From a bacterium (GTDB taxonomy: Bacteria > AUK180): a stretch of DNA of 64,000 nt. The stretch is taken from positions 13,218-77,217 of the forward strand of contig JAGLWT010000116.1 of NCBI GenBank assembly GCA_023133295.1, read 5' to 3'. Shown here one piece after another: positions 1,530 to 47,834 of the stretch. A program made the position numbers and the translations under genes. The notes under the pieces are model-generated. The model searched no databases. It was not told the DNA's origin and saw only the letters and a list, made by a program, of their open reading frames with translations. Each line of letters starts with the position of its first letter. Position 1 is the stretch's first letter.

Positions 1530-1541
1530 GATTTCGAAGAA

Positions 1542-5209: not shown

Positions 5210-5227
5210 GTCCTTCCTCCGTTTGGA

Positions 5228-5632: not shown

Positions 5633-5954
5633 GGTTCTATCTCCTCGTAAAATTCTAACACATAACCCGGGATATGTCAATTCTTTGATTGATGCCTGAT
5701 TTGATTGATGCCATAACATATTGACTTTTGCTTCCGATCCATATAGTTCTCCATGTAATACTCTATCGCTGACATTTTCCTTTCCTTTTTACCGATAACG
5801 GACATCTTTATTGAAATATTCCTGCTGTCTTTTCATAATTCCAGCGGACCATCTTTTCTCTCTTGCACATAATGGCGCTCTGTCCTTTTCATGTATGTTA
5901 TCTATTTGTGATAATAACAATTGAATAAGAAAAGCATTTTTGGTATAATTCACC

Positions 5955-8012
5955 ATGATAAACAAGGATCGCTTGCCAAAACTTGATAAACTGCCTTCAT
6001 ATGGCAAATTCGGCTCCCTGATCAAGCTTAATGAGGTAGAGAAACTTGTTTCAAGATACCTTATGGCATTCGACGAACTTTTTAATGAAATTGAAAAATC
6101 GAGAGAATTAAAATCACAGTTCAAAGAATTGAGAGCTGAACATCAAAAGATCCTGAAAAAGAAAGATAGGAATGAGGAAGAATTGCAGAGAAAACTTGGA
6201 CTTGCCAAAGATAGATTCCTGAATATGAAAAGTGAGATCAAGGACCTTAACAAGCAGATCAGCGGCCTCAAAAAACAAACCGACTCGGCAGGCGCATCCT
6301 TTGAAGAAATTGAAAAAGACCGTAATGAAATATACAATGAACTCAAAGCCCTTGAAAATAGCAGTGACGGGGTGAAAAACGACCTGAAGGACACGAAGAA
6401 AGAGAATAGACGGCTGTTAAAGGAAAACACAACCGCGGTGGATGCTTTGGAAAAACTGGAGAATGATCAGAAAGAAAAGACTTCCGAGATTTCCGGATTA
6501 AGATTAAAGATCGACGAGATTCAAGCTGAGAAAGAAAGAATTCAAAACGAGTTCGATGGTCTGAACAATAATTTGTCCGATTATGCTTTTGACAAGGAGA
6601 ACCTGAGCGAGCAGCTTGAAAAGGTCACAACTAAACTATCGGATAATGAAAGCGCTTTGAAGAACAACAACAATATCATCAAAAATCTGAGTGCGACCAT
6701 AGGTGAGCTCAGAGGTGAAATAAAAGACCTTGATAAGGACAAGGATGATCGCAGAATAGAAGTGAAGGAATTGAAATCACTTCAGAAGGCCGCTGACAAA
6801 GATAAGGTAAAACGGGAAAATAAAATTGTCAAATTTGAAAATAAAATTGAAAAACTGGAGTCAGAGAAAAGGGCTGTTGCCAATGAAAGGGATTCTATTT
6901 CAGAAGACTTGAAAAAACAAATAGATAAACTGAATAGCGATATCTCTGAATTTGAGGAACTGCTTTCCGATTCCGAGGTCGACCATGATCGTTTAAAAGG
7001 CGATACCGAAGAAAGTAAAGCTCACATTAAAGAACTTAAGGCTACTATAGATAGCCTCAGAAAGAGTCTTGAAGAAAATGATGAAAAACTAAAAGAGAAC
7101 GAAGCAGAAAAAGAAAGGTGCACTTCTGAACTGAAGAATAATCTAGAATCAAGAGACAGTGAGATCTTAAAAATCAGCAAAGAACTCGATGCAATCACGC
7201 AGGACGATTTAACGGCACAGAATGAGCTCAAGGGAAAAGAACAAGGTATAACCATGCTGAGCACGGAGATAGAAGACAAAGATAAGCAGATCGATCGGCT
7301 CGGAATAAAGCTTGAGGAATTATCCAAGGACGACCTTGATATAAAATCGGAGCTTAAAGAAAAGGCGTCGCTTATTGACAAACTGAGTAAAAACATTTTT
7401 GAAATGACTTCTGAAAATTCCGGGCTTAAGGATGACCTGGAAAAACTGGGCAATGAAAGAGACGAAAAAGAAACTCTTGTCTCAGAGCTGAGTGAAAGGA
7501 TCGGTCAGCTTGAAGGCCAGGACGGCAATATAAAAAGCAGTATTGCTGAAAAAGAAGGGTTGATCGCAAATCTGGAAAAGACTAATGCGGATATCCTGAA
7601 AGAGAGGGAGGATCTTAGTAAAGAAATAAAGATTATCCTCGAAGAGATCAAAAAGGAAAAAGAAAATAACAAAGAATTGAGTAAACAATTGAAATTAAAA
7701 GAAAAGGAAATGGAAGGACTTCTTAAGAAGATAGACGAGGTTCTGGGGACTCAACTTAAGGAGGTCGAGGATCCCCTTGCGGAATATCTGAATCTCCAGA
7801 AACTGGAACCAGAGGAAATACCCAGCGACAAACAAACAACTGGCGGAGATGAATCGGATATGCAAAACAAATTGATGAATACCATGAAGGAAAATAAGGA
7901 ATTGAGAGAGCAGATGACAGAACTGCAGGATATCCTGCAATCCAGGGGGAATGAGATAATCCGTTTCAAAGAGCAAGTGGAAGCTCTTCAGAAAAAACTC
8001 GATGGATCTTGA
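5955..8012 (+). CDS. Long coiled-coil protein (685 aa, Lys/Glu/Leu-rich heptad-like sequence, no ATPase motifs seen)
   Basis: Continuous coiled-coil-type low-complexity sequence (ELKSQFKELRAEHQKILKK..., KELKATIDSLRKSLEENDEKLKENEAEKER...). No Walker A motif, so not a canonical SMC. Divergently transcribed from the bactofilin pair. TATAAT at about 5944-5949, immediately before the ATG. Confidence 0.6.
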   Translation: MINKDRLPKLDKLPSYGKFGSLIKLNEVEKLVSRYLMAFDELFNEIEKSRELKSQFKELRAEHQKILKKKDRNEEELQRKLGLAKDRFLNMKSEIKDLNKQISGLKKQTDSAGASFEEIEKDRNEIYNELKALENSSDGVKNDLKDTKKENRRLLKENTTAVDALEKLENDQKEKTSEISGLRLKIDEIQAEKERIQNEFDGLNNNLSDYAFDKENLSEQLEKVTTKLSDNESALKNNNNIIKNLSATIGELRGEIKDLDKDKDDRRIEVKELKSLQKAADKDKVKRENKIVKFENKIEKLESEKRAVANERDSISEDLKKQIDKLNSDISEFEELLSDSEVDHDRLKGDTEESKAHIKELKATIDSLRKSLEENDEKLKENEAEKERCTSELKNNLESRDSEILKISKELDAITQDDLTAQNELKGKEQGITMLSTEIEDKDKQIDRLGIKLEELSKDDLDIKSELKEKASLIDKLSKNIFEMTSENSGLKDDLEKLGNERDEKETLVSELSERIGQLEGQDGNIKSSIAEKEGLIANLEKTNADILKEREDLSKEIKIILEEIKKEKENNKELSKQLKLKEKEMEGLLKKIDEVLGTQLKEVEDPLAEYLNLQKLEPEEIPSDKQTTGGDESDMQNKLMNTMKENKELREQMTELQDILQSRGNEIIRFKEQVEALQKKLDGS

Positions 8013-8033
8013 TCCGGATATTATCAGGGACGG

Positions 8034-8390
8034 TCAGTCCGAATTTTCATCGATATAATCTGAAATCAATCTGACATCGGTGTCAGACATATTTTTGAAT
8101 TCTATACCGAAATCATACAGAGTCTTATTATTTTCGTGTTTTGTGAAAACCCTCACCACCTGACCCTGACATTCGATTACCTTATCTTCAAATTCAAGAT
8201 CAAAGACAAGCGGTTTAAATACAGAAAGTTCGATCACACTGTCAGTTTCAAGATCTAACTCCAGACAGGTTCCCCCTCCGCTTATATTAATCAATTTGGC
8301 CGAATATTCCTTTTCATCTCCGCCAAACATGAATTTAATATCTGCGCTATGAGTGTGCAACCGTTCATGTTTTCTCTTATTCTCATTCAT
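8034..8390 (-). CDS. PilZ-domain protein (c-di-GMP receptor type). Start revised to the internal ATG with RBS
   Basis: PilZ signature: KRKHERL (RxxxR-like), then DIKFMF, then AKLINISGGGTCLE (DxSxGG-like). The ATG at 8388-8390 is preceded by AAAGGAG at -13 to -7. The track ORF extends to 8501, which runs into a repeat island. Confidence 0.6.
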   Translation of the reverse strand: MNENKRKHERLHTHSADIKFMFGGDEKEYSAKLINISGGGTCLELDLETDSVIELSVFKPLVFDLEFEDKVIECQGQVVRVFTKHENNKTLYDFGIEFKNMSDTDVRLISDYIDENSD

Positions 8391-8464
8391 ATGAATTCTC
8401 CTTTGTATAAAAGCAGTATATAACAAAATACCCGGATTATCAAGATAGCCTGATCCAAAGTTGG

Positions 8465-8690
8465 AGTATTGTAATGCAAGAATCATATCCATTACCTGCA
8501 AGAGATGGATCCTTCGCTCCGCTCAGGATGACGAAAGACCGGTCAAGCCCTGTCCCTACGAAGATCCTCTATTATTTCTCATTTCCCACTTGTGCCCTTG
8601 TCACTTGTGCACTTGTGCTCTGCGAAGCATGTCCATTGTACATTTCTCTTTATCCACCTCGTACTTCGCACTTGCAATAAAACTGGATCC
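8465..8690. repeat. Intergenic mosaic repeat island (modules C, D, E plus 'cacttgtgc' micro-tandem)
   Basis: It matches 3706-3800 (modules C and D) and 358-395 (module E, the cgtac-rich unit). Internal 'cacttgtgcccttgtcacttgtgcacttgtgc' repeats occur at about 8588-8620. Confidence 0.6.
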
Positions 8691-9209: not shown

Positions 9210-10022
9210 TCATTCCATTGTGTTGCATACATGCGCACAGTCTACAGTTGAAGAAGTATCTGCCGATCCTTGAGTGCAAGTTACCTGATCACCATATATT
9301 TCTGCACACTTAATTTGACAAGCATCATGCCAATCAATTCCTTCCTTCATATTGGCTTCAACCCCCCAGCCTTTACACAGTTCATTCATTGCGACCTGTT
9401 TGTGCGTGTGACACGCACAGACCAAAATTGTTTGAGGTAAATAAAGATTGCCATCAGGATTCTCTACCATCCAATAAGTGGCCTCTAAATACATTTTGAA
9501 GATTGTCTCAAATTCTGGGTCCTGGATCCATGTTGTATGAATATATAATTCTTCAATCCGCTTCATGGCCGAAAAAAATTGTTTTTTATTTATCAAATGG
9601 GTTACAGCGTTAATTTTATGAGAAACTGCTTTTAAGTGACCAGCAGTATCAAAGCCGACCCAACCAAGATCAATGAAAGTTTGCATTCTTTCCAAAAAAG
9701 CAAAAAACTTAGGGTCTACAGGGATATATTCTCTATCATGCAAATCCCCCTCATCGCCTTTCAAGAAAGGGTTTTGGACCCTATCATGATCCACAGATAT
9801 TTGAATTTGGCATGGGTCTTCTTCATAAAGAAAAATGATATAGCCATTGTCATCAATTTCAAGAATATCAATCATATCTGAGAATTCACTATAATGAAGC
9901 GAATACTCACTACTTGTATTGAACCTATACAATGACTCTTCAGGTGTGGTTAATTCCTTATGTTCCTGACACCCTAAAAAAAAGACACCTAGGAAAACTA
10001 TAATAAGTAGATATTTTCTCAT
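9210..10022 (-). CDS. Hypothetical lipoprotein with a Cys/His-rich C-terminal region
   Basis: MRKYLLIIVFLGVFFLGCQ lipobox-type signal peptide. AGGAGG RBS before this ATG (the track ORF start is at 10070). The C-terminus CACHTHKQ...CKGWG...CQIKC...CTQG...CAHVCN suggests a metal- or disulfide-rich domain. Confidence 0.4.
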   Translation of the reverse strand: MRKYLLIIVFLGVFFLGCQEHKELTTPEESLYRFNTSSEYSLHYSEFSDMIDILEIDDNGYIIFLYEEDPCQIQISVDHDRVQNPFLKGDEGDLHDREYIPVDPKFFAFLERMQTFIDLGWVGFDTAGHLKAVSHKINAVTHLINKKQFFSAMKRIEELYIHTTWIQDPEFETIFKMYLEATYWMVENPDGNLYLPQTILVCACHTHKQVAMNELCKGWGVEANMKEGIDWHDACQIKCAEIYGDQVTCTQGSADTSSTVDCAHVCNTME

Positions 10023-10194
10023 ATCTCCTCCTACTGCCAGCAGTATAACACGGTCTACGATTAATAGCAAGCACCGTTTCTTCCTTTACAGACAATACAT
10101 TCTCCCGCTAAAATGTGGCAGAATGAAAGGCAAAGGGATGGATTCCTGATATTAAACCTTGTCCCTGGGGCATTGGTCCACTGGGTCACTGCTT

Positions 10195-10863: not shown

Positions 10864-11610
10864 TTAATCCTCCCTTGAAAGTCTAGTGATCTGTGCGAAG
10901 GTTTCTGAAGATAAGCTTGCGCCGCCCACCAAAAAACCGTCTATATCTTTCATATTCATTAATTGTTTTGTGTTATCCGGCTTAACGCTGCCGCCATATA
11001 ATATGGATGTGGCATCACCGCAGCCTTTACAGAGTTTTTCAACCGTTTTACGGACAAAAGCATGTGCTTCCTGGGCGATTTCCGGCGTAGCCGTTTCACC
11101 TGTTCCGATAGCCCATACCGGTTCATACGCAATTATCAGGTCTGAGATACATCCGATGGATCTCAAGCCTTCTTTAAGTTGGCGGCCAAGAACATCAAAT
11201 GTTTTGCCTGATTTTCTTTCTTCCAGCGTTTCTCCAATACAGAATATCGGAATAAGATTGTTCTTCAAAGCGGAAATGACTTTGCGATTTAATAATTCGT
11301 CTTTCTCTCCGAAGACATGCCTTCTTTCAGAATGGCCGACAAGGATATATTTGCATCCAAGGTCACGGAGCATTCCGGGAGAGATCTCGCCTGTGAACGC
11401 ACCCTTTTCCTTATCATACATATTTTCTCCGCCATAAAGCATCTTGTCCTGCTCCTGAAAAAGGTGAAGGTAGATCGAAGGAGGAAAAATAATGTTCTTC
11501 ACACCCTCAATATCCGCCACCAATTGCGGAAAATCTTTAATGAAATCGGCAATCGCCAATGAATTCAAATTCATCTTCCAATTGCCTGCAACTATTTTTT
11601 CTCTCATCAT
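10864..11610 (-). CDS. tpiA: Triosephosphate isomerase
   Basis: IVAGNWKMN..., GHSERR, AYEPVWAIGTG and GGASL motifs. Its start overlaps the pgk stop as ATGA. Confidence 0.95.
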   Translation of the reverse strand: MMREKIVAGNWKMNLNSLAIADFIKDFPQLVADIEGVKNIIFPPSIYLHLFQEQDKMLYGGENMYDKEKGAFTGEISPGMLRDLGCKYILVGHSERRHVFGEKDELLNRKVISALKNNLIPIFCIGETLEERKSGKTFDVLGRQLKEGLRSIGCISDLIIAYEPVWAIGTGETATPEIAQEAHAFVRKTVEKLCKGCGDATSILYGGSVKPDNTKQLMNMKDIDGFLVGGASLSSETFAQITRLSRED

Positions 11611-12791
11611 TCCTCCAATGCCCTGAATCCGGGAAGGTTCACTCCCGATAACATCCCCAGCGAAGCTCCACCGCCGGTTGAGATGTGGGACATTTTATCA
11701 CTTTTATTAAATTTCTTTACCGACGAGGCGGAATCTCCTCCACCCACTACGGTAATGCCCTCGCACTCTGCCATCGCGTCAATAACGGCAACAGTGCCCC
11801 GGGCGTATTCATCTATTTCAAAGATCCCCATGGGGCCGTTGAATACAACAGAACCCGATTTAACTATCAGGCCGCTGAATAATTCACAGGTCCGCGGACC
11901 GATATCCACTCCGATATCCGAATCCTGCATGGCATTGACATCCCGGATCTCCTTGTACTTCGGAGATTCAATACTGTCAACCGCGAGAGTATCCAAGGGA
12001 AGTACTAGTTTATCACCCGCTCTTTCCATTATTCTCGATGCGATGTCAAGAGATTCCTCTTCCAGCAAAGACTTTCCGACATTATATCCCTTTGCCTTCA
12101 GGAAAGTGAACATCATTCCACCGCCGATAAGTATATGGTCGGCCTGCACTATCATTGTTTCCAATAGTCCTATCTTGTCCTTGACCTTTGCTCCTCCGCT
12201 TATCACCGAATACGGCCTTTCCGGTGTTGTGAGCTTTTCATTCAAATACATATACTCTTTTTCCACAAGGAAGCCCATCGCTTTGTTCTCCATGGGAAAA
12301 AGTCCGGGCAGAGTGAAGACGGAAGCATGTTCTCTGTGCATTGTACCAAAGGCATCATTCACATAGAATTTCGCGCCGAGGGCAGATAATTGTTTCGCAA
12401 ATTCTGTATCGCCTTTTTTCTCGGCCTTGTGAAACCGGAGATTCTCAAGCAAGAGAATTTGGCCCGGCTGAAGGTCAGAAACGCGGCTGTTGACATCCTC
12501 TCCGATCACTTGCTTCGAATATTTAACATTCGCGCTGCCAAGATACTCCTGTAATTTCTCAAATACGGGCTTCAGAGAAAATCCCTCTTCATAACCGATA
12601 CCGGAAGGGCGGCCCAAATGCGAAGCCACTATTATCCTAGCGTCTTTTTCCAGTAGATATTTGATCGTCGGCAGGGCGGCATCTATCCTTTTAGTATCTT
12701 TAATAATACCGTCTTTAACCGGGACATTGAAATCCACCCTAAGAAAAACTACATCGGCTTTCCCGATGGTAAGCCGCTTTATCGAGTTCAT
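11607..12791 (-). CDS. pgk: Phosphoglycerate kinase
   Basis: ASHLGRP, FHKAEKK, TGGGASL, GGGDS and NGPMG motifs typical of Pgk. Confidence 0.95.
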   Translation of the reverse strand: MNSIKRLTIGKADVVFLRVDFNVPVKDGIIKDTKRIDAALPTIKYLLEKDARIIVASHLGRPSGIGYEEGFSLKPVFEKLQEYLGSANVKYSKQVIGEDVNSRVSDLQPGQILLLENLRFHKAEKKGDTEFAKQLSALGAKFYVNDAFGTMHREHASVFTLPGLFPMENKAMGFLVEKEYMYLNEKLTTPERPYSVISGGAKVKDKIGLLETMIVQADHILIGGGMMFTFLKAKGYNVGKSLLEEESLDIASRIMERAGDKLVLPLDTLAVDSIESPKYKEIRDVNAMQDSDIGVDIGPRTCELFSGLIVKSGSVVFNGPMGIFEIDEYARGTVAVIDAMAECEGITVVGGGDSASSVKKFNKSDKMSHISTGGGASLGMLSGVNLPGFRALEE

Positions 12792-13805
12792 TTATTCTTT
12801 ATCTGCCATGTATTTTATGAGGTCGGCCATTCTACAGGAATAACCCCATTCATTGTCGTACCATGAGAATATCTTTGCCGTCTTTCCCATCACTCTGGTC
12901 ATTGCAGGATCAAATATTGAGGAGTGTGAATTACCGATAAAATCGGTTGAGACCAGCGGATCTTCTTCATATTCCAAAATTCCCTTCAATTCTCCATTGG
13001 CGTATTCTTTCATCTTACCATTGAGCTCTTCTACTGTAACTTCTTTGTTAAGCTCTACCGTAAGGTCGACCATAGAAGCGTCCGGAGTAGGAACTCTGAC
13101 AGCAAGGCCGTCAAGTTTTCCATCCAATTCAGGAATTACAAGGCCAACGGCTTTTGCGGCACCGGTGGTGGTGGGGATCATGGACATAGCCGCGGCACGG
13201 CCTCTTCTGAGGTCACTATGGGGCAGGTCAAGGATCTTCTGATCGTTCGTATAGGCATGTATCGTTGTCATGAACCCGTGGTCCAGTCCGAATTCCTTAT
13301 TCAGAACATAGGCAACAGGGGCAAGACAATTTGTCGTACAGGAAGCATTCGAGATAATGAAATGTTTTGCCGGGTCATAATTTTTATGGTTAACACCCAT
13401 TACAAAGGTCGCGTCCGCACCGGGGGAACCTTTTGCGGGAACACTCAGAACAACACGCTTTGCGCCTGCCTGAAGATGAAGGGATGCCTTCTCATGCGTT
13501 CTGAAGATACCCGTGCATTCCAGCACATAATCTACTCCCAATTCCTTCCAGGGAAGTTTTGAGGGGTCTCTTTCTTTGTATATTCTGTACTTTTCTCCGC
13601 TTATGTTCAGGAAATCGCCCTCAACCTTTACCGGATGGGGAAATTTTCCGTGAACACTATCATATTTCAGAAGATGAGCCAATGTTGCGGGATCGGTCAG
13701 ATCATTAATAGCAACTACATCTATATCCGAAAAGCGATCACAGCTCAATAACCTCTTGAAAACAAGGCGGCCGATTCTACCAAAACCATTAATTGCAACT
13801 TTCAT
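12792..13805 (-). CDS. gap: Type I glyceraldehyde-3-phosphate dehydrogenase
   Basis: [13 protein letters not shown]ossmann start. Catalytic [20 protein letters not shown]-terminal signature. Confidence 0.95.
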
Positions 13806-13831: not shown

Positions 13832-14782
13832 CTATCTAAACAATAAACTGATTCCTAAATGATTTGTCTCGCCGAGATCACCGAAGGGAACATAGGCATA
13901 ATCGAACTGCAGAGTAAGAATATCAACCTTTCTGTTGCCCTGGGTTTTCTGGAAAGTATGATCAAAACCAAATCCAAAGCCTATACTTCCTATCTCCACA
14001 TTGGAATATCCCACACGAAGAGGAATGGCGCTGAACAAGGAATACTCAAGGCCCACAGAGATCACCGCAGGATTACCCGAAGGTATGGATGCCTGAAGCG
14101 AAAGATCCATTCCTTTGATGAGATTATAATTTCCGCCGATAGTAATATTCATAGGTATCTTTTCTGTCGGTATTTCATAATCGCCCGTGACATCCCGCTC
14201 GTATAAGAGGCCTGAGCCGAGATTCGAAATAGCAAGACCGACATTTCCATTGCCTATCTTATACTTCATACCGATATCCATAAGAAAGGTCTCTGCGAGA
14301 ACATTCGCAAGTTCTTCTTTGTAAAATTTACCCGCAACGGCAAAGGAGAAGTTATCTCCTAATTTTTTCCCGTATGTCAAAAAGAATTGATTGTAACTCA
14401 CATCGAACTGCTCTACCGACTCTTCCCAGCTTCCCCATGTAAATGCGTCTATGGGCTCTGTAAAAAACACATTGACCGCAAGGCCGAAGAAATCTGTTTC
14501 CGTGAAGGGAATGCAGAACGCGAAATATTCCATGGATGTATCCACGAGGTAATTTGTCTGGCCGATTGAAACAGAAGCCGCGGTAAATGATGTTACATTC
14601 GCGGGGTTGTAGAATATCGCCAAGGGTTCATTGCTTGAGGTGACCATAGCATTTCCCAGTGAGAACGCCTTTGCTCCGATGGGCATTAAGAGAAATGATC
14701 CGGAGGTCTCACCGTTAGAAACCGCAAATGTGGATACTGCAAAAAGGATGACCGCCAGCGTTATTATTATTTTTTTCATCAT
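13832..14782 (-). CDS. Outer-membrane beta-barrel protein, FadL/TodX/PorV-like (NPA hatch motif). Putative cognate partner of the upstream T9SS cargo
   Basis: Signal peptide [23 protein letters not shown]-terminal [22 protein letters not shown] motif, like the FadL NPA hatch. Alternating hydrophobic beta-strand pattern. Ends in an aromatic-rich C-terminus. Lies 8 nt downstream of the 1081-aa CTD protein. Confidence 0.5.
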
Positions 14783-14789
14783 TATCTCC

Positions 14790-17700
14790 TTATCTCACTA
14801 TTACAAGTTTCCCTTTCATGACATCCTCGTCATCATCAGGGTTGGTTATAACATAGAAATACAATCCGGTAGCTATCGCTTTGCCGTCCTCATTCATCAG
14901 GTCCCACTTCTCGCCGCCGTCACCATAAGTAGTTTCACTGGTGGCGGAATGCTCAATAGTTCTGATAAGACCGCCCTTAATATCGTAAATAGTAATGGTC
15001 GCATTTTCGGTCAGCTGCACGAATACCATATGATTGTTTTCCTGAAGAGCGTCTGCTGTTCCGTAGATGAAAGGATTGGGAACACAATGCGCCAGTTCAA
15101 GATTCTGCTCCTTATCAAAGTCCTTGGAAACCGTAGCGATATTAGACGGCTTACTTTCAAGATCCGTGGTTCTGTTAAAGGAGGTCACAAAATAGTAATA
15201 TGTAGCATACTCATCAATATAAGTATCAACGAATGTATAGGTGTCGGCTCCCGTGGAAGCCACGGCACCGATTTTCTCGATATAATCCTCATCCAAAGGC
15301 TCTACACTATCGTATATCGCGGCAGTGGAACATCTGTAAACATAGTATCGGAAAATATCTCCGGAAGCCTTATTAAAAGTGAGCGTGACGCTTTTATTGG
15401 TGTCTATAGCAACAAGATTTGTGGGATAGTCCGGATTTGTAAAAACACTCCCTGTTTCTACCGGCAATTCTCCTAATGAAGTGTGGTAGTCATACTTTTT
15501 AACCGTATAATTAACGGTAATGTCTCCGGATAGCTCCGGATATACCCAATCAACCATTATTTCCGGATAAGATGTTAGATACAATGTAGTATCCTGCACC
15601 CAACTATAGCCGTTAGGAAGATCCCACAAAGAATATATTTTTGAACCATCGCTTACTCTGTAAAAAGTAGCACCCCAATCGTCAAGACTTTCCCAAACCA
15701 TTTTCTGTGTATTGGTTTCATAAAAGACGGTTTTAGTAGTCCCATATCCTTCCCAAAAATAATTGACCGGGGAGGTATCTGAAGTGGAAATGGTAAAAGG
15801 CGTACTATTCGCAATTTCCTGCAGACAGAAATTGTTCACAATAATCTTCTCAATATTATTCCCAGCAGAGTAATTATACTCTGAGAGGTCAATTAGCACT
15901 TCCGTAAGAGATGATGTATCAATGTAAGTAACATCACTTAAATTGAATCTGTAATCTTCATCACCATATTTGGCATAAACCACATGATCCGTGGCCGCAG
16001 ATTGCAGATATTCATATGCGCCGTTCTGAACATATACTGTGTGAGCGAGCACGGCATTTCTGGTAATTTCATACTTTTCAATGTCCTTTTCCCGTGAGAG
16101 CGGCTCCGTCCACATCAAACGGAATATATTCGAATTATCGTCCAGATAAAAACTAATCTCACCTATTGCGGTAGTAAAATACGGTTCAAAGGTCATCTCT
16201 AGAAGATACGCGGGAACACTCTCATTAAAATACCCTGAGTAAAAATCCGCAAGATCGGTAGAATAGTTGTAATATGCATCATCATGAGCGGATATGCCGA
16301 AGTTGTATTCACCAGATGCACTTGACACATAATCTGTTGACGACAAAACATAAGAGGTTGAAGTGTACACCGCATAAGACGTCGGAGAATTACTCAGGTA
16401 TCCAGTCAGTCGTTGGAGACCTCCATTATCCCCCAATCTGTGAAAACGGAAATCAGCTTTTCCTCCTGCAAACATAAACACCTGATAACCCGCAGCATAT
16501 GGAACTGTTTCGGACGAATTGAAATCAGCAGGATCCCAGATAAGCCGGAATTCAGTCAAGCAGGTTTCTGGGTTATAATACTCATAGTAATTTGTAAGCG
16601 AGGGGGCGGCCGGAGGGGCAATATCTGCGTAGTTCAGTCCGACATTATGCATATCGGCCATTGCGTCATATGAGGCATCAAGGGCATCAATAGCTGCATC
16701 CAGAGTATCTCCCATGGATTTACCAATAGCAAAAAATACTACTTTCGATTCACCCGCTTCGAGCTCATAAGGACCCGCTGTAAGCGCGATAGCGTAATTG
16801 CCTTTTACAGCTGTATTCGAATCAAATCCTTGACCTACAAAATCGCTATAAGTGGCCACCATAGGGTTCCACGGCATGAGTCCGAATTCTTGTGAACTTA
16901 TGCTGTCGCCAAGAGGCCTGTCAATGGCGTAAGCGACCGGAATATTGTCATCGATCCCATTGGAATCTATGTCAGAATAAGCGGGGTCATAGCTAATTAT
17001 CTTGAATCCTGCTGGAGATTCATCCTTATTGAGAAGTTTTACTCCGAGAACAAAATAAGGATTCTCTCCTGCAGTGGACTGCTCATCATATATCACGCCG
17101 AAATTGCCGGTACGATTGAAGTCGGGCTCAACCCAGGCGGCCATATCATCATTTTGCCCTCCATCGGGTATATAAAAACCAAGTGTTTCGGGCGATCCGG
17201 TGCTATACTCATAGTCTACAACTACAGCCGCCTCACTCCATCTTGTCCTGATATCTGCATCAAGACGCTGGGTAACAAAAACCTCTTTCTCTGAATCACT
17301 ATTATTTGTTATTACATACGCCTTTAGCATGATATTATCAAAATCGGGGTGGTAAAACGCAGGGTTGATATCATAATCCGCCCAATCCAAGGCGACACTT
17401 TCAAAGAAATTATTCGCATTTTCTGATGTATAGGAAAAAGTACGGGCATCGACAGATATTCCTTGAGGACTGTGAGAATATTTGTCCATTATTTTACAGT
17501 ATGACTCCAATGGCGCGTAGATTGCATGTCGAGGCGCAAAGTGCCGGTCATATCTGACCATACCCCAAAAACTATCATTGGCGACCGGACCGCCGCCCTG
17601 ATCCAGAAAATAGTCATGTTCCTGAAGAAAATATGTTTGAATGAAGTTGGCATGGCTGAAATCATTTGCATTCCCATTGCTGCCTTGTAAAAGCCAGCTT

Positions 17701-18035
17701 CCAGAAGAATCAGAAACGATCAAACTTCCCATGTACAGGTGATCATAATCCATATACTCATAATAAGCGCCATAGGCCCCCCAGTCCCTTCCCTGGAAGG
17801 AAGTACCCACGCCAAGGTCGGTGGCGCCCGTAACAAACTGATGATCGAAATAACCGCCGAGAAAAGAAAAATTGGTGCCGTCACATCCAGAATAGATGTA
17901 ATCTGCAAGCCAATGTGTCATATACGGCTTATTCCCGTCATTTCCCCACACCCACTCAGGGGTTTCGTAAGAACAAATTGAAACGCTGAACGCGATTAGC
18001 AAAAGGGACAATAGAACTTTCTTTAAAGCTCCCAT
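14790..18035 (-). CDS. Large secreted protein (1081 aa) with a T9SS C-terminal sorting domain; catalytic or adhesive function unknown
   Basis: Signal peptide MGALKKVLLSLLLIAFSVSICS. C-terminus PNPF...ATITIYDIKGGLIRTI...GLYFYVI...KGKLVIVR matches a Por_Secre_tail type-A CTD. The N-terminal 900 aa are Gly/Tyr/Asp-rich beta-type sequence with no recognised catalytic motif. Confidence 0.7.
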   Translation of the reverse strand: MGALKKVLLSLLLIAFSVSICSYETPEWVWGNDGNKPYMTHWLADYIYSGCDGTNFSFLGGYFDHQFVTGATDLGVGTSFQGRDWGAYGAYYEYMDYDHLYMGSLIVSDSSGSWLLQGSNGNANDFSHANFIQTYFLQEHDYFLDQGGGPVANDSFWGMVRYDRHFAPRHAIYAPLESYCKIMDKYSHSPQGISVDARTFSYTSENANNFFESVALDWADYDINPAFYHPDFDNIMLKAYVITNNSDSEKEVFVTQRLDADIRTRWSEAAVVVDYEYSTGSPETLGFYIPDGGQNDDMAAWVEPDFNRTGNFGVIYDEQSTAGENPYFVLGVKLLNKDESPAGFKIISYDPAYSDIDSNGIDDNIPVAYAIDRPLGDSISSQEFGLMPWNPMVATYSDFVGQGFDSNTAVKGNYAIALTAGPYELEAGESKVVFFAIGKSMGDTLDAAIDALDASYDAMADMHNVGLNYADIAPPAAPSLTNYYEYYNPETCLTEFRLIWDPADFNSSETVPYAAGYQVFMFAGGKADFRFHRLGDNGGLQRLTGYLSNSPTSYAVYTSTSYVLSSTDYVSSASGEYNFGISAHDDAYYNYSTDLADFYSGYFNESVPAYLLEMTFEPYFTTAIGEISFYLDDNSNIFRLMWTEPLSREKDIEKYEITRNAVLAHTVYVQNGAYEYLQSAATDHVVYAKYGDEDYRFNLSDVTYIDTSSLTEVLIDLSEYNYSAGNNIEKIIVNNFCLQEIANSTPFTISTSDTSPVNYFWEGYGTTKTVFYETNTQKMVWESLDDWGATFYRVSDGSKIYSLWDLPNGYSWVQDTTLYLTSYPEIMVDWVYPELSGDITVNYTVKKYDYHTSLGELPVETGSVFTNPDYPTNLVAIDTNKSVTLTFNKASGDIFRYYVYRCSTAAIYDSVEPLDEDYIEKIGAVASTGADTYTFVDTYIDEYATYYYFVTSFNRTTDLESKPSNIATVSKDFDKEQNLELAHCVPNPFIYGTADALQENNHMVFVQLTENATITIYDIKGGLIRTIEHSATSETTYGDGGEKWDLMNEDGKAIATGLYFYVITNPDDDEDVMKGKLVIVR

Positions 18036-21107: not shown

Positions 21108-22913
21108 TTAATTCACTGATATTTCCATTTTGTAATTATTTTTATCTCCAACGGGATAAATGGGCTTCAAATTATCATCGGTAAACAGAATATAGCCATT
21201 TTTGACATCACCTTTAATCTCCATATCAATTTTTACATTTTTTTCTGAATCAAGTAACTTATAGTCAATATATCTCCATTTTTGATAGGTAGGTTTTTCG
21301 AAGTTATCATGAAAAAACAAATATATCGGTTTATATTTTTCAAATCTTAAAAAAGTGATCAGTGTCTTTTTTTCTTCCTTTATTTTTATTGAATAACCTC
21401 TAAATCTAAAATATTTAAAATCCTTATTCAATATATTTTCCGGATTCATTTCAATTCTTTTGTTATTTGCAACTCTATACAATTTTGTATCAATTAAACT
21501 CCGTTCAAAGATAATCGGGAAGGTGTTGTTCCCACATATAAATGTTCCTTTTATAAAAAGATCAAAAGGAAGTTTCGTTTTTCTACTGTAAGATTTCATT
21601 AACATAATATTATACGGTAATTCATTCTTTATAATTAAATTTTCTAAATTTGCATTTGTAGCGATTAACATATCCGCTTTCATTTTTCCAAAATCAAGTT
21701 CCGGAATATTATTTTTATAAAACAAATACCTACTTGCTTCACCGCTTACAGCATAGATTTTCTTATTTTCGTTATCGTTAATTACTTTGTTTCCGACCTC
21801 CGCTGCCGTCTTTGAGTAATCGTAAAATCCTGTAATAAATATTAGAGAAAATGAGATTGCAAATATTAGTTCAAATACACTAAATTTTCTTTTAAATAGA
21901 TTATCTCTTGAATAAAATATAATGAACGGAAATATTAAAGAAAAATTCCTTACCGTTGGCTGCGGATACACAATTATAATTGCAAAAGATATAAAAAGTA
22001 ACCACAAAATATTTTTAAGATCAAATAGCAAAAGGATAGAAATAAGCAAATAGAGAGAAATAATGAATGCAATAATTTTTGAAATATCCGTATTCAAATA
22101 GATACAAAGAAATAATATAGGTAAAAGGAAAAAATACATTTTCTTTTTTCGGGATAAATAGATTAGGATTGGTAATGTAAGAATAGCTAAGTTAATTGGA
22201 ACCGAAAATACTTTTTGAAAAAATCCTATCCTATTTCCGTAATGGTAATCTCCTCTCCATACCAAGGCATCCAAAATAACATTTCCCCCTTTTTCAATAT
22301 AACATATTAGGATATAAAGAAAAATAACAATGATTGGAAAAAAGTAAATGTATACTTTCTTATCTTTTCGTATGATCATATCTATTAGAAAAAACAAGGC
22401 AACTAAAATTATAGCGTAATTTGTTAGAAGTGAAAAGGACAAAAACAAAGATGATAGAATAATATCTTTTAATTTTCTACTTTTTTTATAATCTTCATAT
22501 TTTAAGAAACTTAATATCAGAAAAACAAAGCAGTATGCTTCATGCATAAATGAATTAACAAACAACAAAACAATTGGTGAAATAAATACCAGAAATATTA
22601 GATATTTTTTAGCGGTATATTTTCTAATTATCAGCATAAACACAAAAAGGTAGAGCAAACTTGAAAAAAGATAAAATAAAAATATGTCCTCCTGAATTGG
22701 GAAAAGCGAGGCAAAGAGTAATAAAAGCGGCGGATGCGTATCATTATATACATAAGATTCTTTACCGTAATATGAAAAAGAAGCATTAAATAAACCGCCA
22801 TTTTTGATTGATATCGCGCTAATTAAGTTTTTGGAACTATCCCAAAAGGGAGGGATGAAAATAGTTACTAACACCAGTACGGTTAAAATTATAATGAGAT
22901 ATTTCTTTTTCAC
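21108..22913 (-). CDS. Multi-TM membrane protein, GT-C fold ArnT/PMT-like (GT39/GT83-type) putative glycosyltransferase with a conserved C-terminal soluble domain
   Basis: More than ten predicted TM helices. The first extracytoplasmic loop contains NDTHPPLLLLF, like the HPPL motif of PMT_2/ArnT-type GT-C enzymes. The C-terminal about 110 aa (FLRFEKYKPIYLFFHDN...YQKWRYI...VKNGYILFTDDNLKPIYPVGDKNNYKMEI) is shared with the protein encoded at 22925..24877. Confidence 0.45.
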   Translation of the reverse strand: MKKKYLIIILTVLVLVTIFIPPFWDSSKNLISAISIKNGGLFNASFSYYGKESYVYNDTHPPLLLLFASLFPIQEDIFLFYLFSSLLYLFVFMLIIRKYTAKKYLIFLVFISPIVLLFVNSFMHEAYCFVFLILSFLKYEDYKKSRKLKDIILSSLFLSFSLLTNYAIILVALFFLIDMIIRKDKKVYIYFFPIIVIFLYILICYIEKGGNVILDALVWRGDYHYGNRIGFFQKVFSVPINLAILTLPILIYLSRKKKMYFFLLPILFLCIYLNTDISKIIAFIISLYLLISILLLFDLKNILWLLFISFAIIIVYPQPTVRNFSLIFPFIIFYSRDNLFKRKFSVFELIFAISFSLIFITGFYDYSKTAAEVGNKVINDNENKKIYAVSGEASRYLFYKNNIPELDFGKMKADMLIATNANLENLIIKNELPYNIMLMKSYSRKTKLPFDLFIKGTFICGNNTFPIIFERSLIDTKLYRVANNKRIEMNPENILNKDFKYFRFRGYSIKIKEEKKTLITFLRFEKYKPIYLFFHDNFEKPTYQKWRYIDYKLLDSEKNVKIDMEIKGDVKNGYILFTDDNLKPIYPVGDKNNYKMEISVN

Positions 22914-22924
22914 ATCAATAATCT

Positions 22925-24877
22925 TTATTTTATCTCCATTTTACAGTTATTTTTATCTCCAATGGGATAAATGGGTTTCAAATTATCATTGGTAAACAGG
23001 ATATAACCGTTTTTGACACCACTTTCAATCTCCAGATCAATTCTTACATTTCCGTTCAGATCAAGCAAGTAGTGAGCAATATATTTCCATTTTTGATAAT
23101 CAGGTTTTCCGATATTATCATGAAAAAAAGCATAAGTCGGTTTATATTTTTCAAATCGTACGAAAAGACTCAATATCTTTTCTTGTTCATTCTCTTCAAT
23201 TGAGTAGCCTATAAATTTAAAATACTTAAAATTCATATTTATAATATGTTCCGGTTTCACTTTTCTTGTCTTTATTTTAGCGAAGTGATTTTGTCTATCA
23301 AATCTGAAAATATTAATATTTTCCAATTCAACATTGGATAATGAGTACGGTAATATTCCTAAGTTATTATCATAAAATCCTGCATGTGCCTTGGCGTTCA
23401 TTATTCTATATGGAAACTTACTTTTATAAATAACTTTTTCTATGTGAAGCAGATCCGGTCTAATACTATTTTTTAATTCAGCTGGACATGAATAAGTTGG
23501 AATGATCATTATATCATTTTCCTTTAATTCATTTGAATTCCAGCAATAATATTTAGCATCTATCTTCTCTAAATAGTATCTAAAGCCCCATTCACCCATA
23601 AACCAGACTCTGTTGTTTTTAACAGTAGATTTGATTTCATCAGCAAATCTTTTATAGCTTTCTGCAAATCTATAATCAGCATAAGTAATGCCGATGGTAT
23701 TTCCTAATGTAAGTATTAGCGTAATTGCAATGAACACTTTTTTTAATACTAAATTTAAATTCAAATTTATTAGATCATACGAAATAATAATTGTAATAAC
23801 CGGCAATGTAATTAATAAATATCTTGCAATGCCCAACGGCATAATTAAAGTACAAATGATTAAATACAAAAGAAAGCAAATTGATAAGAATTTTGTAACA
23901 GAATTATTGGGTCTTATAAATTCTTTAATAATTCTAAACATAATTAATAATCCGGAAAATAGAAATATTATAAATAATGACCTGCTTATAAAATTGAAAT
24001 TCCTGGTAAAAAATATCGTACAAGCGATAGTTATTAGTAATTGAATTATTAATAACTTTTTATTTACCGACTTAAGAAGATACAGAGCTATTATTGATAT
24101 GGGGAAAATAGTGGTGGAGCCTATCACTATAATATTTGAAATAAATTTAGGAATGAGCATTGATATAGCCCTTAGCTTTAAATTTGTGTCACCGGGCCAC
24201 ATTAACGCATATAATGGATGTGGAAATCCAAATTTTATTGTTGTGAAGATTATCCAGATCAATATTGATGATAAACAAATTAAAAAGGGTATATAATAAA
24301 TAAATTTCTTTTTTTTGAAAATAAGATAGTACAAAACAAACAAAAAAAGTAGAAATATACCCCGATAATCAATTCCCCATGATATTATTGAAGTAAGTCC
24401 TGATAAAATTAAGAGTAACACATTGTCGTTTTTTACTCCTTTTATAAAAAACAAAAATGCTAATAAAAAAAATGAAAACATTGGAACATCACTCATTATA
24501 CTAATTGACGAAGTAAACAGTATTGAAGAGAAGGAAAACAGAAAGATTGCTGTAAAAGAAAACAAATCAAATTCCTTTAGTATAAAGTACATAGAAACAA
24601 TAGATAAAATATAGAAAATAATATAAAATAAATGAAAATAAGTTTCATTTACCTCTCCTACAATTATATAACAGAAATGACAGTATAAAAAGTTTAGAGG
24701 TGGCTTGGTAAATTTGTAATACGGTACAGTTTCACCAAGAAAATATACATAATTCTCCTTCGAAAAGAAATTCTTTATAGGAACTTGACCATAAGGTGTC
24801 CTCTGAATAGATTCAATTGTCTTATGGTCATCTATATTGAATGGTTTGTTTACAAAAATTAACTGGACTGATAACAT
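22925..24877 (-). CDS. Multi-TM GT-C-like putative glycosyltransferase, tandem paralog of 21108..22913
   Basis: Same architecture. Loop motif YKFTKPPLNFLY. C-terminus FVRFEKYKPTYAFFHDNIGKPDYQKWKYI...GVKNGYILFTNDNLKPIYPIGDKNNCKMEIK. The 3' ends are about 85-90% identical to 21108..22913 at the nucleotide level (compare 21125-21200 with 22935-23010). Confidence 0.45.
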   Translation of the reverse strand: MLSVQLIFVNKPFNIDDHKTIESIQRTPYGQVPIKNFFSKENYVYFLGETVPYYKFTKPPLNFLYCHFCYIIVGEVNETYFHLFYIIFYILSIVSMYFILKEFDLFSFTAIFLFSFSSILFTSSISIMSDVPMFSFFLLAFLFFIKGVKNDNVLLLILSGLTSIISWGIDYRGIFLLFLFVLYYLIFKKKKFIYYIPFLICLSSILIWIIFTTIKFGFPHPLYALMWPGDTNLKLRAISMLIPKFISNIIVIGSTTIFPISIIALYLLKSVNKKLLIIQLLITIACTIFFTRNFNFISRSLFIIFLFSGLLIMFRIIKEFIRPNNSVTKFLSICFLLYLIICTLIMPLGIARYLLITLPVITIIISYDLINLNLNLVLKKVFIAITLILTLGNTIGITYADYRFAESYKRFADEIKSTVKNNRVWFMGEWGFRYYLEKIDAKYYCWNSNELKENDIMIIPTYSCPAELKNSIRPDLLHIEKVIYKSKFPYRIMNAKAHAGFYDNNLGILPYSLSNVELENINIFRFDRQNHFAKIKTRKVKPEHIINMNFKYFKFIGYSIEENEQEKILSLFVRFEKYKPTYAFFHDNIGKPDYQKWKYIAHYLLDLNGNVRIDLEIESGVKNGYILFTNDNLKPIYPIGDKNNCKMEIK

Positions 24878-25390
24878 GATGATCAGTAATAAAAAAAACT
24901 TAATTCCTTTTAAATTATATTTTTCTATAATAACTAACCATCCTTTTCTTTAAGGAACCTTTTCTCGCTTCCTTCGGTCATTTCAGATTTTTTTAAATCT
25001 CCTTCTCTATCGTAAGTCTGCTCCTTTTTGACATATTGCCTTCATTTCATCCGAAAGGACGAATTCCATTTCGCTACGCTGCATTCCATTCGCCCTTCAT
25101 GGTGTAAACTATTGTTTGTCTCACTTTCAAGGGAGAGCAGGACATTGTGACCTATCAGATTAGTTGAAATATATCGGATTTTTCAGAAAAAGTCAAATAA
25201 TTTATTGTTTCTATATATCAAAATATGCGTTTTTTTATTCTAACCATTTTGATTTGATAATATTTTTAAGTTCACGATTGCCTTTAACATTTAAATGATA
25301 AGTTTTATCGAGAGAGAGTTTATCCGGAATAAAAATGCAACTTTTTATATCTAATTCCTTATTAATTTTTTCAATATCATCCACCATTTT

Positions 25391-26218
25391 TTAAAAAAAA
25401 TAATACTTATTATCTTTTTTGTTCTGTGTCAACATATAATTCCCAAGTATAATAATTGACAAATTGTATTCATTCTGAATCTTTTTTATAAGATACCTAT
25501 ACCTATTTAATCCTTCATTATAATCTTTACTGTACTTTTTAAAATATTCATAACTGTCTTCTCCTTGATAGTATTGGCTTTTCTTTTTGTCTTTAATATT
25601 TAATGATAAATACATCGGGTGCAAAAGAGCAATCAATGGATCATTATTTATAATCCAGGGAAATGCTCTTTTATTGGGATAAACTATTGAATATTCATTC
25701 CCATTTTTAACTATTGTCGGGGCTGATCCTGGATAACGAAAGAACTCTCCAAAATCATTTCCTATATAGAAAATAATAAGCACATTTGAACCTTTTGAGA
25801 TATTATATTTTTTAAGTAAAAGATACTCTTGTATCGGCGAATATGTAATAACCCCGAAATTATAAAAATAATACCCATTCCCCTCTTTATTTAACAGAGA
25901 TGTAAAGAGATTGTTGTTTATAACATAATTATCAGTTTGAGAATCTCCCAATACATATATAGGAATCTCATTATCTCTTATTTTTCTGCAATTTCGATTA
26001 CCATATTTCCCTGTTTTGATCTTTGCCTTTGATCGTCGAGCCTGATAAAATTCATTGTGTTTAATTCCAAGTATATTATCATAAACATAGGAACCATATC
26101 CATTTTTACCCTTATTAAAACCACTGATATTACAATGAACAAATAAAATAATATCCAATAATAAAAAACAAATTATAATAAAAAGTAGTATCTTTAAAGC
26201 TTTTTTGAAGATATTCAT
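25391..26218 (-). CDS. SGNH/GDSL-family hydrolase-like protein (possible glycan O-acyl esterase or transferase)
   Basis: N-terminal TM anchor. IPIYVLGDSQTDNYV gives a GDS(x) block-I motif. Overlaps the upstream 773-aa gene by 4 nt. Confidence 0.45.
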   Translation of the reverse strand: MNIFKKALKILLFIIICFLLLDIILFVHCNISGFNKGKNGYGSYVYDNILGIKHNEFYQARRSKAKIKTGKYGNRNCRKIRDNEIPIYVLGDSQTDNYVINNNLFTSLLNKEGNGYYFYNFGVITYSPIQEYLLLKKYNISKGSNVLIIFYIGNDFGEFFRYPGSAPTIVKNGNEYSIVYPNKRAFPWIINNDPLIALLHPMYLSLNIKDKKKSQYYQGEDSYEYFKKYSKDYNEGLNRYRYLIKKIQNEYNLSIIILGNYMLTQNKKDNKYYFF

Positions 26219-29646: not shown

Positions 29647-29750
29647 ATTTAAATATTTAGTTTTCCATGATTCTGAACAACTCTACTCCTTCACATCGAG
29701 GAGAAGAGAAATAATTATTGTAAAGCAAAAGACTGCTTTTGCTATTTATT

Positions 29751-34043: not shown

Positions 34044-34083
34044 TATCTAATAATTTATGCAAGATTCTTCCGATTGGAGGAAA

Positions 34084-43868: not shown

Positions 43869-43877
43869 GGCAGCCCC

Positions 43878-47831: not shown

Positions 47832-47834
47832 GAT

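Follow-up and report, generated by a model that had tools for sequence, protein, structure and literature searches.

Predicted PorV/PorQ-family barrels encoded beside individual C-terminal-domain proteins, and a barrel::ComEA fusion in a comEC operon, in a bacterium of the AUK180 lineage

A stretch of 64,000 nt from a bacterium of the AUK180 lineage (GTDB; assembly GCA_023133295.1, contig JAGLWT010000116.1, positions 13,218 to 77,217 of the forward strand; hereafter the window, numbered from its first nucleotide) contains three genes for large proteins with a C-terminal domain (CTD) resembling the sorting domains of type IX secretion system (T9SS) cargo. Each of these cargo genes is followed directly by a gene for a predicted outer-membrane beta-barrel of the PorV/PorQ family. 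The explanation favoured here, to which a probability of roughly 0.55 is given, is that the three barrels serve as dedicated carriers or anchors of the neighbouring CTD protein, as judged by analogy with characterized carrier–cargo complexes, and that the second and third pairs would form a surface and outer-membrane module for DNA capture that feeds ComEC. The principle of pairing is already known; the main interest is the fusion of the third barrel to ComEA modules and the operon in which it lies, more than the pairing itself.

The three gene pairs

All six open reading frames (ORFs) of the pairs are on the minus strand, at the coordinates given in a preliminary description of the window. 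Cargo 1 (14790–18035, 1081 aa) precedes barrel 1 (13832–14782, 316 aa), cargo 2 (47835–51371, 1178 aa) precedes barrel 2 (46947–47831, 294 aa), and cargo 3 (43878–46940, 1020 aa) precedes barrel 3 (42390–43868, 492 aa), which is a barrel::ComEA fusion. The intergenic gaps, first put at 3–10 nt, measure 7 nt (14783–14789), 3 nt (47832–47834) and 9 nt (43869–43877), respectively. Barrel 1 ends 26 nt before gap, and barrel 2 ends 6 nt before cargo 3. A hydrophobic N-terminal segment resembling a signal peptide is evident in the translations of all six proteins.

When the window was searched with hidden Markov models (HMMs) of the three barrel families, only these three ORFs were matched, and each lies directly 3′ of a CTD gene; under a naive model of random gene order the probability of this arrangement is ~2.5e-4. 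Adjacency of cargo and barrel is also kept in other species. The ORFs at 62946–63959 and 9210–10070 were considered as further barrels and rejected after checking.

Family assignment of the barrels

The barrels were initially described as paralogues with an N-terminal NPA motif, and both points hold. Profile–profile comparison (hhalign) matched barrel 1 to barrel 2 (97.7 %, E 1.7e-12), barrel 1 to the N-terminal domain of barrel 3 (99.0 %, E 5.5e-18) and barrel 2 to the same domain (97.7 %, E 2.5e-12), in each case over the full length of the barrel, with pairwise identities of only about 18–27 %. The motif, which is the hatch motif of the FadL family, reads FYNPANV, LVNPALM and YNNPAML in the three proteins and lies ~50–60 residues from the N-terminus. 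The size of about 300 aa attributed to all three applies to the proteins of 316 and 294 aa, and not to the third, which is longer by virtue of the fusion.

The NCBIfam models most relevant to these proteins are NF033709 (PorV_fam, the PorV/PorQ family; cut-off 90 bits), NF033710 (PorV; 250) and NF033711 (PorQ; 220). Barrel 1 scores 115.3 bits on NF033709, above the cut-off, with residues 26–313 aligned. Barrel 2 scores 77.6 bits (E 1.2e-21) on the family model and 82.8 bits (E 2.3e-23) on T9SS_PorQ, each below the respective cut-off. Neither protein reaches the equivalog level for PorV (46.2 bits for barrel 1, 18 bits for barrel 2) or PorQ (54.7 and 82.8 bits); the distant homologue P0046, in contrast, reaches 261.5 bits on the PorQ model. 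The sole significant sequence match of the barrel 1 family profile in the PDB is PorV (6h3i_F, 3.5e-9). No match to PorP/SprF (TIGR03519 and PF11751) was found for any of the three barrels at Pfam E ≤ 0.01 and NCBIfam E ≤ 0.1, and no protein of the window has a Pfam match to FadL/Toluene_X (PF03349) at E ≤ 0.01. Comparison of PF11751, PF03349 and the PorV-family models, as had been proposed, places the barrels in the PorV/PorQ family as divergent members with a FadL-like fold. Of the original label ‘FadL/PorV-like’, the PorV part is borne out by the NF033709 and PorQ scores and by the PorV fold match, whereas the likeness to FadL is seen at the level of fold only and not in the sequence model. 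Each of the three genes is, from these sequence matches, predicted to encode a 14-strand PorV/PorQ-family outer-membrane beta-barrel, the fold having been modelled for the fusion alone.

The barrel::ComEA fusion

The fusion protein consists of a PorV/PorQ-like N-terminal domain (42936–43811, minus strand, ~aa 20–311), comprising a hatch segment with the NPA motif and a 14-strand barrel, and of two ComEA-type helix-hairpin-helix (HhH) modules (42432–42896, minus strand, ~aa 325–386 and 417–479) separated by a Ser-rich disordered linker. The C-terminal third matches HHH_3 in two stretches (E 1.4e-45). It also scores 123.9 bits, again in two stretches, on TIGR00426, the model of the ComEA HhH repeat region, which is above the cut-off of 53.1. 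On the full-length comE model TIGR01259 the protein scores 124.3 bits, below the cut-off of 152.35, as expected because the N-terminal half differs.

An AlphaFold2 model built from a nine-sequence alignment has a mean predicted local distance difference test (pLDDT) score of 73.7. It shows an N-terminal helical segment, 14 strands over residues 60–311, and then one HhH, a low-confidence Ser-rich linker (residues 392–414) and the second HhH. The best Foldseek matches of this model in the PDB are 8gl6_F (E 4e-11) and 6h3i_F (E 3e-10), both PorV of the SprA translocon, followed by CymD, TodX, FadL and OmpG. In outer-membrane barrels with an even number of strands, the N- and C-termini both face the periplasm, so that the HhH modules of the fusion are predicted to be periplasmic and to hang under the outer membrane. 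ComEA of Gram-negative bacteria acts in this same compartment, where it draws DNA in (PMC3879209).

A scan of the genomes of 185,579 species with a six-sequence alignment of the fusion returned 172 ComEA-like matches, of which the best 80 loci were kept; a barrel N-terminal domain is fused to ComEA in 7 of these best 80. Seven is a lower bound, as the scan relies on two peptide patterns. An assembly artefact was considered as the origin of the fusion and rejected, the same architecture being present in seven species representatives and in additional metagenomes. No description of a barrel::ComEA fusion, or of an operon combining lamin tail domain (LTD) proteins, ComEA and ComEC, was found in full-text literature on ComEA and type IX secretion, on the lamin tail domain and on PorV/PorQ homologues. 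The fusion appears to be previously undescribed.

The operon ending in comEC

The genes of pairs 2 and 3 follow one another in a single minus-strand operon with spacings of -4 to 9 nt, in the order DUF3006, LTD–CTD cargo 2, barrel 2, LTD–CTD cargo 3, barrel::ComEA, p663, a 48-aa peptide and ComEC. The preliminary description had not noticed that the two pairs share an operon with ComEC, nor that both of their cargos carry LTDs, and this context changes the purpose to be proposed for the pairs. The first gene (51368–51595, minus strand) encodes a DUF3006 protein of 75 aa (PF11213, E 1.1e-20), and its stop codon overlaps the ATG of cargo 2. A DUF3006 gene occupies the same position in one related locus (L001) and in one distant locus (L095).

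The gene p663 (40402–42393, minus strand), the start of which shares 4 nt with the end of the fusion gene, encodes a signal peptide, a ComEA-like HhH (aa 57–112) and a beta-rich domain of ~540 aa. HHH_3 is matched in all five orthologues searched (best E 1e-13), and the family profile matches ComEA 2duy (6.8e-4). No known family was found for the ~540-aa part, and a single-sequence search of the PDB was empty. This part has no transmembrane helix, is rich in Tyr, Phe, Asn, Ser and Thr, and has a beta-amphipathic periodicity greater than the helical one. The protein ends in ...DWRF or ...LKF in some orthologues and in ...LSKF or ...QYMF in more distant homologues. The domain is conserved in L009–L013, the whole protein in L019, and the HhH region only in L095. 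The possibility that p663 is another PorV-like barrel was rejected (hhalign 10 %).

Between p663 (1 nt overlap) and comEC (2 nt gap) lies a 48-aa ORF with a single hydrophobic helix (40256–40402, minus strand); gene calls in L001 and L002 likewise put a 48-aa gene at this point. The operon closes with a gene (37353–40253, minus strand, 966 aa) for a ComEC/Rec2-type inner-membrane DNA channel, with 132.9 bits on PF03772 (Competence), 83.5 bits on DUF4131 and 66 bits on TIGR00360 (above its cut-off of 36.5); on the equivalog TIGR00361 it scores 159.6 bits, below the cut-off of 190. No Pfam metallo-beta-lactamase match was found in this protein. By eye, the expected position of HxHxDH reads LILTDYSQDNNSAV. 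The C-terminal nuclease domain may be degenerate or absent, in which case another nuclease would be needed for single-stranded DNA.

The operon is syntenic, at 36–97 % identity and within the limits of the contigs, in seven related loci (L002, L008, L009, which is the same as L001, and L010–L013). These come from six other assemblies; L008 is the species representative and belongs to the same species as the window, and one relative is labelled Candidatus Mcinerneyibacteriota. Orthologues of cargo 2 are found in L008–L011, those of barrel 2 in the same slot in L008, L009, L010 and L011, and those of cargo 3 (47–96 % identity) in L002 and L008–L013. ComEC is syntenic as the terminal gene in five loci (L002, L008, L009, L010 and L012). 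Two more distant versions of the module were also found. In L019, a metagenome-assembled genome labelled Spirochaetia, the fusion (28 % identity) is accompanied by two LTD–CTD proteins and a large HhH-carrying protein. In L095, the fusion (29 % identity) is accompanied by DUF3006, by three LTD proteins, two of them with weak CTD-like matches only, and by a large HhH-carrying protein; a 401-aa PorV/PorQ-like barrel follows the first LTD gene.

Cargo proteins and their C-terminal domains

The CTDs of the three cargos (14793–15053, ~aa 995–1081 of cargo 1; ~47838–48098 in cargo 2, where TIGR04183 matches residues 1092–1176; and ~43881–44162 at the C-terminus of cargo 3; all minus strand) were identified with a local CTD HMM, which scores 103.7, 101.6 and 119.9 bits on cargos 1, 2 and 3, respectively. 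The last ~90 aa of the three proteins align with one another and with their orthologues, sharing a ‘G-[VIL]-Y-F/I’ motif and a terminal ‘K...V-V/I-x-R/K’. The CTD of cargo 1 also has weak matches to FlgD_ig (E 5.8e-4) and CHU_C (E 2.3e-3, 18.5 bits against a cut-off of 27), and that of cargo 3 a weak match to FlgD_ig (2.6e-4). No cargo matches the type-B sorting domain TIGR04131, and the weak CHU_C (PF13585) match of cargo 1 is the sole type-B-like signal. The assignment of these domains to type A, as first proposed, agrees with their length of ~90 aa, their C-terminal position, their shared motifs and the lack of TIGR04131 matches, while all three fall under the cut-off of the type-A model TIGR04183; in appearance the paired CTDs are closer to type A than to type B.

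The three cargos have different bodies. Cargo 1, when searched exhaustively with phmmer against 1.84 billion representative proteins, matched 624 proteins at E ≤ 0.001. Only two of these are full-length relatives (P0050, 47 % identity; P0051, 39 %), and three more are fragments. The remaining matches listed (~600) cover only the last ~100–200 residues of cargo 1, and mostly end at or near their own C-termini. A portable sorting domain would be expected to give such matches. A word-indexed homologue search with cargo 1 returned the query itself only, and apart from the CTD no Pfam or PDB match was found for its body. On these sequence comparisons cargo 1 is a predicted secreted protein of a lineage-restricted family. 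Cargo 2 contains two LTD stretches (6e-31), a Big_5 domain (1e-24) and a weak fn3 match, and cargo 3 contains two LTD stretches (1.2e-22). Pfam and PDB sequence searches of cargos 2 and 3 revealed no nuclease domain, and single-sequence searches of the PDB with cargos 1, 2 and 3 found nothing.

Similarity to PorU is restricted to the tails. The cargo 1 profile touches PorU (6za2) in the CTD only (E 0.088), and cargos 2 and 3 match the PorU model NF033707 (cut-off 420) over their last ~80 aa only, at 23 and 15 bits. No cargo has a match to the C25 peptidase or to PorZ (NF052228). A porU–porV identity for cargo 1 and barrel 1 was rejected, there being no C25 peptidase signal. In one relative (L090, 1–5835) the cargo 1 orthologue is preceded by a gene for a protein of 2896 aa that has LTD, Big_5, PLDc_2, PD40 and Tricorn-like repeats. 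Its PLDc_2 domain is of the phospholipase D (PLD) type and possibly a nuclease; LTD thus also coexists with a candidate nuclease domain in this clade.

How general the pairing is

The pattern of a CTD gene followed by a barrel gene holds for three of the four CTD genes of the window. The fourth (1542–3455, plus strand, 637 aa) encodes an LVIVD beta-propeller protein, the tail of which scores 40.4 bits on the CTD HMM, 23.7 bits on TIGR04183 (above the cut-off of 23) and 53 bits as a PorZ-CTD-like domain. Its neighbours are another gene for an LVIVD protein (789–1529) and a convergent gene for a TPR protein (3866–4636); no barrel gene is adjacent. Two LVIVD-repeat genes are thus adjacent on the plus strand at 789–3455, and the second also has a CarboxypepD_reg-like domain. 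Its product might be the PorZ analogue of the organism or simply an unpaired cargo.

Outside the window, four unrelated large proteins were chosen by CTD similarity alone. One gene lies at a contig end, leaving three informative loci: a PorV-family barrel lies after one gene (184.9 bits, L092) and before another (227 bits, L094), and the third has no barrel. The preliminary description had named a lack of conserved adjacency for other CTD proteins of the same genome as evidence against its proposal; the selective occurrence of the pairs counts against it in part. A two-barrel variant of the arrangement was observed at L006 (5484–9830). There, the gene for a BNR/Sortilin-like protein, the tail of which is FlgD_ig/type-A-like, precedes two PorV/PorQ-family barrel genes in tandem (320 and 296 aa), and a FemAB-like gene associated with PEP-CTERM systems comes next.

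Pairing therefore recurs widely, yet selectively, which points to private partners for some cargos and to no general rule. The resemblance to cognate pairs such as PorU and PorV that was originally proposed is upheld by the conserved adjacency and agrees with the published 1 : 1 sub-complexes, yet it does not extend to all CTD proteins.

Proposed mechanism

The role proposed for the barrels is modelled on characterized T9SS components. PorV spans the lateral opening of SprA, binds the CTD of the substrate through its extracellular loops and leaves with the substrate (PMC10994853). In the 1 : 1 complexes PorU : PorV and PorZ : PorQ, a surface protein with its CTD still attached is anchored by the barrel (PMC5562754, PMC10947112), and a review has proposed that cognate PorV-like barrels protect or hold particular CTDs (PMC10202324). 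For type-B cargo, the gene for the cognate PorP/SprF carrier lies directly downstream (PMC12618676).

By analogy, the extracellular loops of each window barrel would bind the CTD of the neighbouring protein and collect that protein from the translocon. The barrel would then hold its partner, uncleaved, on the cell surface, as PorQ does with PorZ and PorV with PorU. In the operon, the two LTD proteins would in this way be displayed on the surface, where extracellular DNA would be captured. ComEA tethered under the outer membrane would pull or retain this DNA, which would be imported through ComEC and could serve transformation or DNA foraging. LTDs occur in extracellular nucleases such as ExeM, in which deletion of the LTD slows DNA degradation in vitro (PMC6085458). 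Pair 1 would follow the same anchoring logic with a lineage-specific surface protein.

Alternative explanations and points against the proposal

That the barrels are the general PorV and PorQ of the organism, with PorU- or PorZ-like machinery as their large neighbours, is considered improbable. The genes porU and porV are adjacent in Bacteroidota. The proteins that PorV and PorQ hold, PorU and PorZ, are also large CTD proteins (PMC5562754), barrel 1 exceeds the cut-off of the PorV/PorQ family, and the cargos, at 1020–1178 aa, are near the size of PorU (1156 aa in 6za2). However, the barrels score far under the equivalog cut-offs (PorV 46 and 18 against 250; PorQ 55 and 83 against 220), and the PorU model is matched in the CTD only, with no C25 peptidase and no PorZ match. 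Additionally, cargo 1 is of an orphan family, for which the search of 1.84 billion representatives yielded five relatives, unlike a core part of a secretion machine, and cargos 2 and 3 are LTD proteins inside a ComEA/ComEC operon. It is very improbable that the barrels are instead FadL-type channels or generic porins for small hydrophobic molecules, sharing operons with the cargos without any physical pairing. CymD, TodX and FadL are among the top fold matches in the PDB, the NPA motif is shared with the FadL hatch, and weak precomputed PF03349 matches exist on some homologues; on the other hand, no window protein matches a Pfam FadL/Toluene_X model, the sequence models that do match are those of PorV/PorQ (E 1e-21 to 1e-33), and in the PDB PorV comes first in the fold comparison as well as in the sequence search. 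The cargo-then-barrel order, found thrice here and kept across species and in unrelated loci, also argues against mere operon sharing.

The two other alternatives leave the physical pairing in place. One supposes that no SprA-type T9SS is present and that a barrel and the Ig-like C-terminal domain of its neighbour form a self-contained two-gene unit for export and anchoring, in which the passenger would be carried or anchored by the barrel itself, acting with BAM, in a way that partly recalls two-partner or autotransporter systems. The strict adjacency of the pairs, the divergence of the paired CTDs below the TIGR04183 cut-off and the lack of a visible T9SS core gene in 64 kb would all fit this model. 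It is nonetheless judged quite improbable, because the protein encoded at 1542–3455 has a type-A CTD that passes the cut-off and no barrel, implying a general CTD pathway, and because homologues of the CTD are found on hundreds of diverse proteins. Furthermore, on the structures of FadL and PorV, no plugged 14-strand barrel is known to translocate proteins of ~1000 aa. The other holds that the operon degrades DNA or takes it up as a nutrient at the cell surface, or builds a matrix of extracellular DNA, rather than serving transformation, with ComEA retaining fragments and the ComEC linkage secondary. It differs from the favoured explanation in physiological purpose only, the mechanism of pairing being the same, and is the least unlikely of the four. 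LTDs are typical of extracellular nucleases (PMC6085458, PMC8289736), the 2896-aa LTD/Big_5/PLD-nuclease-like protein of a relative lies beside the pair 1 orthologue, and ComEC is unlinked in the most distant versions of the module; set against these are the undetected nuclease domain in cargos 2 and 3 and the place of ComEC as the terminal operon gene in five loci.

Several observations weigh against dedicated carriers and a DNA-capture module feeding ComEC. No component of the T9SS core (SprA/Sov, PorK/L/M/N, PorU) is visible within the window, and a T9SS is presumed solely from the CTDs and the PorV/PorQ-like barrels. The CTDs score below the threshold of TIGR04183 at the extreme C-terminus (16.7, 20.3 and 13.6 bits for cargos 1, 2 and 3; curated cut-off of this T9SS type-A sorting domain model, 23 bits), and binding between a barrel and the neighbouring CTD is predicted by analogy. 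The window fusion has no match to NF033709 at E ≤ 0.1, and so, like barrel 2, is below the cut-off; its orthologues score 37.7, 63.9, 66.4 and 97.8 bits, the last of these (L012) being above it. In F. johnsoniae (Flavobacterium johnsoniae), all type-A cargos use a single PorV (PMC12618676), and dedicated carriers for type-A-like CTDs therefore depart from the rule as studied. The LTD of ExeM is dispensable for DNA clearance in vivo (PMC6085458). ComEC was not found within 10 kb of the module in L019 or L095, so that the linkage is clade-specific. A plugged 14-strand barrel cannot by itself let double-stranded DNA across the outer membrane. The adjacent p663 is a putative outer-membrane barrel or beta-domain, as judged by composition and C-terminal residues only, and its single-sequence model has a pLDDT of 31.

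A more specific version of the DNA-capture module is entertained only tentatively and is doubtful as a whole: the operon could be a pilus-independent DNA-uptake apparatus built on type IX secretion parts. The LTD proteins would be exported by the T9SS, held by their private PorV/PorQ-like barrels and capture DNA. The barrel::ComEA protein would act as a ratchet tethered to the outer membrane, possibly docking at the lateral opening of SprA like PorV. The HhH-bearing p663, with its large beta-domain, may be the conduit, and DNA would be handed to ComEC. If this were so, the operon would suggest a way for bacteria with a T9SS and without a competence pilus to bring DNA through the outer membrane.

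Genes surrounding the pairs

Directly downstream of pair 1 lie gap, pgk and tpiA (10864–13805, minus strand; Pfam Gp_dh, PGK and TIM). The order cargo 1, barrel 1 and gap, and onward pgk, tpiA and secG, is kept in three relatives (L003/L004, L089 and L090). In L003/L004 the barrel is 53 % identical and an upstream CTD fragment 55 % identical; the cargo 1 orthologue of L089 has 47 % identity and that of L090 39 %. The L090 barrel scores 98.5 bits on NF033709, and secG is also present there. The linkage of a surface-protein pair to glycolysis genes is odd, yet conserved (L089, L090 and L003); gap, pgk and tpiA are probably functionally unrelated to pair 1. Promoter and terminator scans gave counts no higher than those of shuffled controls, and the one suggestive site, matching TTGACA-16-TATATT, lies ~37 nt 5′ of cargo 1. 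Further along, two bactofilin genes (4667–5209 and 5228–5719), a gene for a 685-aa coiled-coil protein with weak crescentin-like matches (5955–8012) and a gene for a PilZ-domain protein (8034–8501) look like a cell-shape or cytoskeleton cluster (4667–8501).

Directly downstream of comEC is a long same-strand cluster of envelope-glycan genes (21108–37310, minus strand). It encodes an O-antigen-ligase-like/TPR protein, a GT2 glycosyltransferase, two carbamoyltransferase paralogues, two GDSL/SGNH hydrolases, a methyltransferase and one PMT_2-type glycosyltransferase, along with two large ORFs without matches (26215–28536 and 21108–22913). This cluster could make a surface glycan that serves for the attachment of CTD proteins. 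A second PMT_2 gene is located upstream of the operon (52510–54756), and a gene for a spore-photoproduct-lyase-like protein (56464–57315, minus strand; PF20903 SPL) overlaps the start of murJ. The outer-membrane barrel genes suggest that the organism is diderm.

Comparison with known systems and significance

The pairs most resemble PorZ–PorQ and PorU–PorV of the T9SS attachment complex of Porphyromonas gingivalis, in which a barrel of the PorV/PorQ family (NF033709) and a large CTD surface protein are likewise joined one to one. The genes porZ and porQ are not known to be linked in P. gingivalis. In the window, by contrast, the partners are adjacent, the cargos are neither PorU nor PorZ, and the barrels score far under the PorV and PorQ equivalogs; the host is an unclassified candidate lineage outside Bacteroidota, and the pairing of the proteins is a predicted one. 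As with SprB–SprF and other type-B pairs of F. johnsoniae, the cargo gene comes first, its carrier lies directly downstream, and each cargo would have one private carrier, but the window barrels belong to the PorV/PorQ family rather than to PorP/SprF, and the CTDs are short (~90 aa) and type-A-like.

The ComEA modules may be compared with ComEA of Vibrio cholerae and the membrane-anchored form of Bacillus. The HhH modules pass TIGR00426, and comEC is in the same operon, as in the comE operon of Firmicutes. ComEA is known either as a soluble protein or with an anchor in the inner membrane; the window form consists of two tandem HhH modules on the C-terminus of a PorV-like barrel, and a further HhH module is fused to a separate beta-rich protein (p663). 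The cargos of pairs 2 and 3 share with Shewanella ExeM an N-terminal lamin-tail domain, the character of a secreted, envelope-attached protein and a DNA-related context. They differ from it in having no detectable nuclease domain, and their anchoring would be through CTD and barrel, not through a C-terminal hydrophobic/rhombosortase signal.

Carrier–cargo specificity in type IX secretion has been shown experimentally only for type-B signals with PorP/SprF, and PorU–PorV and PorZ–PorQ are also known. What sets the window apart is the genetic coupling of PorV/PorQ-family barrels to individual type-A-like cargos outside Bacteroidota, together with the PorV-like barrel joined to ComEA within an LTD/ComEC operon. 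If the barrels are indeed private carriers, the rule of one PorV for all type-A cargo would not be general, and the paired sequences would be material for studying how a carrier recognizes its cargo. In P. gingivalis, which has a T9SS, both ComEA and ComEC are needed for competence, and how DNA passes the outer membrane has been described as unknown (PMC11532111). The fusion operon is a concrete candidate, open to testing, for how DNA is taken through the outer membrane in bacteria without competence pili, and it also bears on DNA foraging in sediments, a possible source of some of these genomes.

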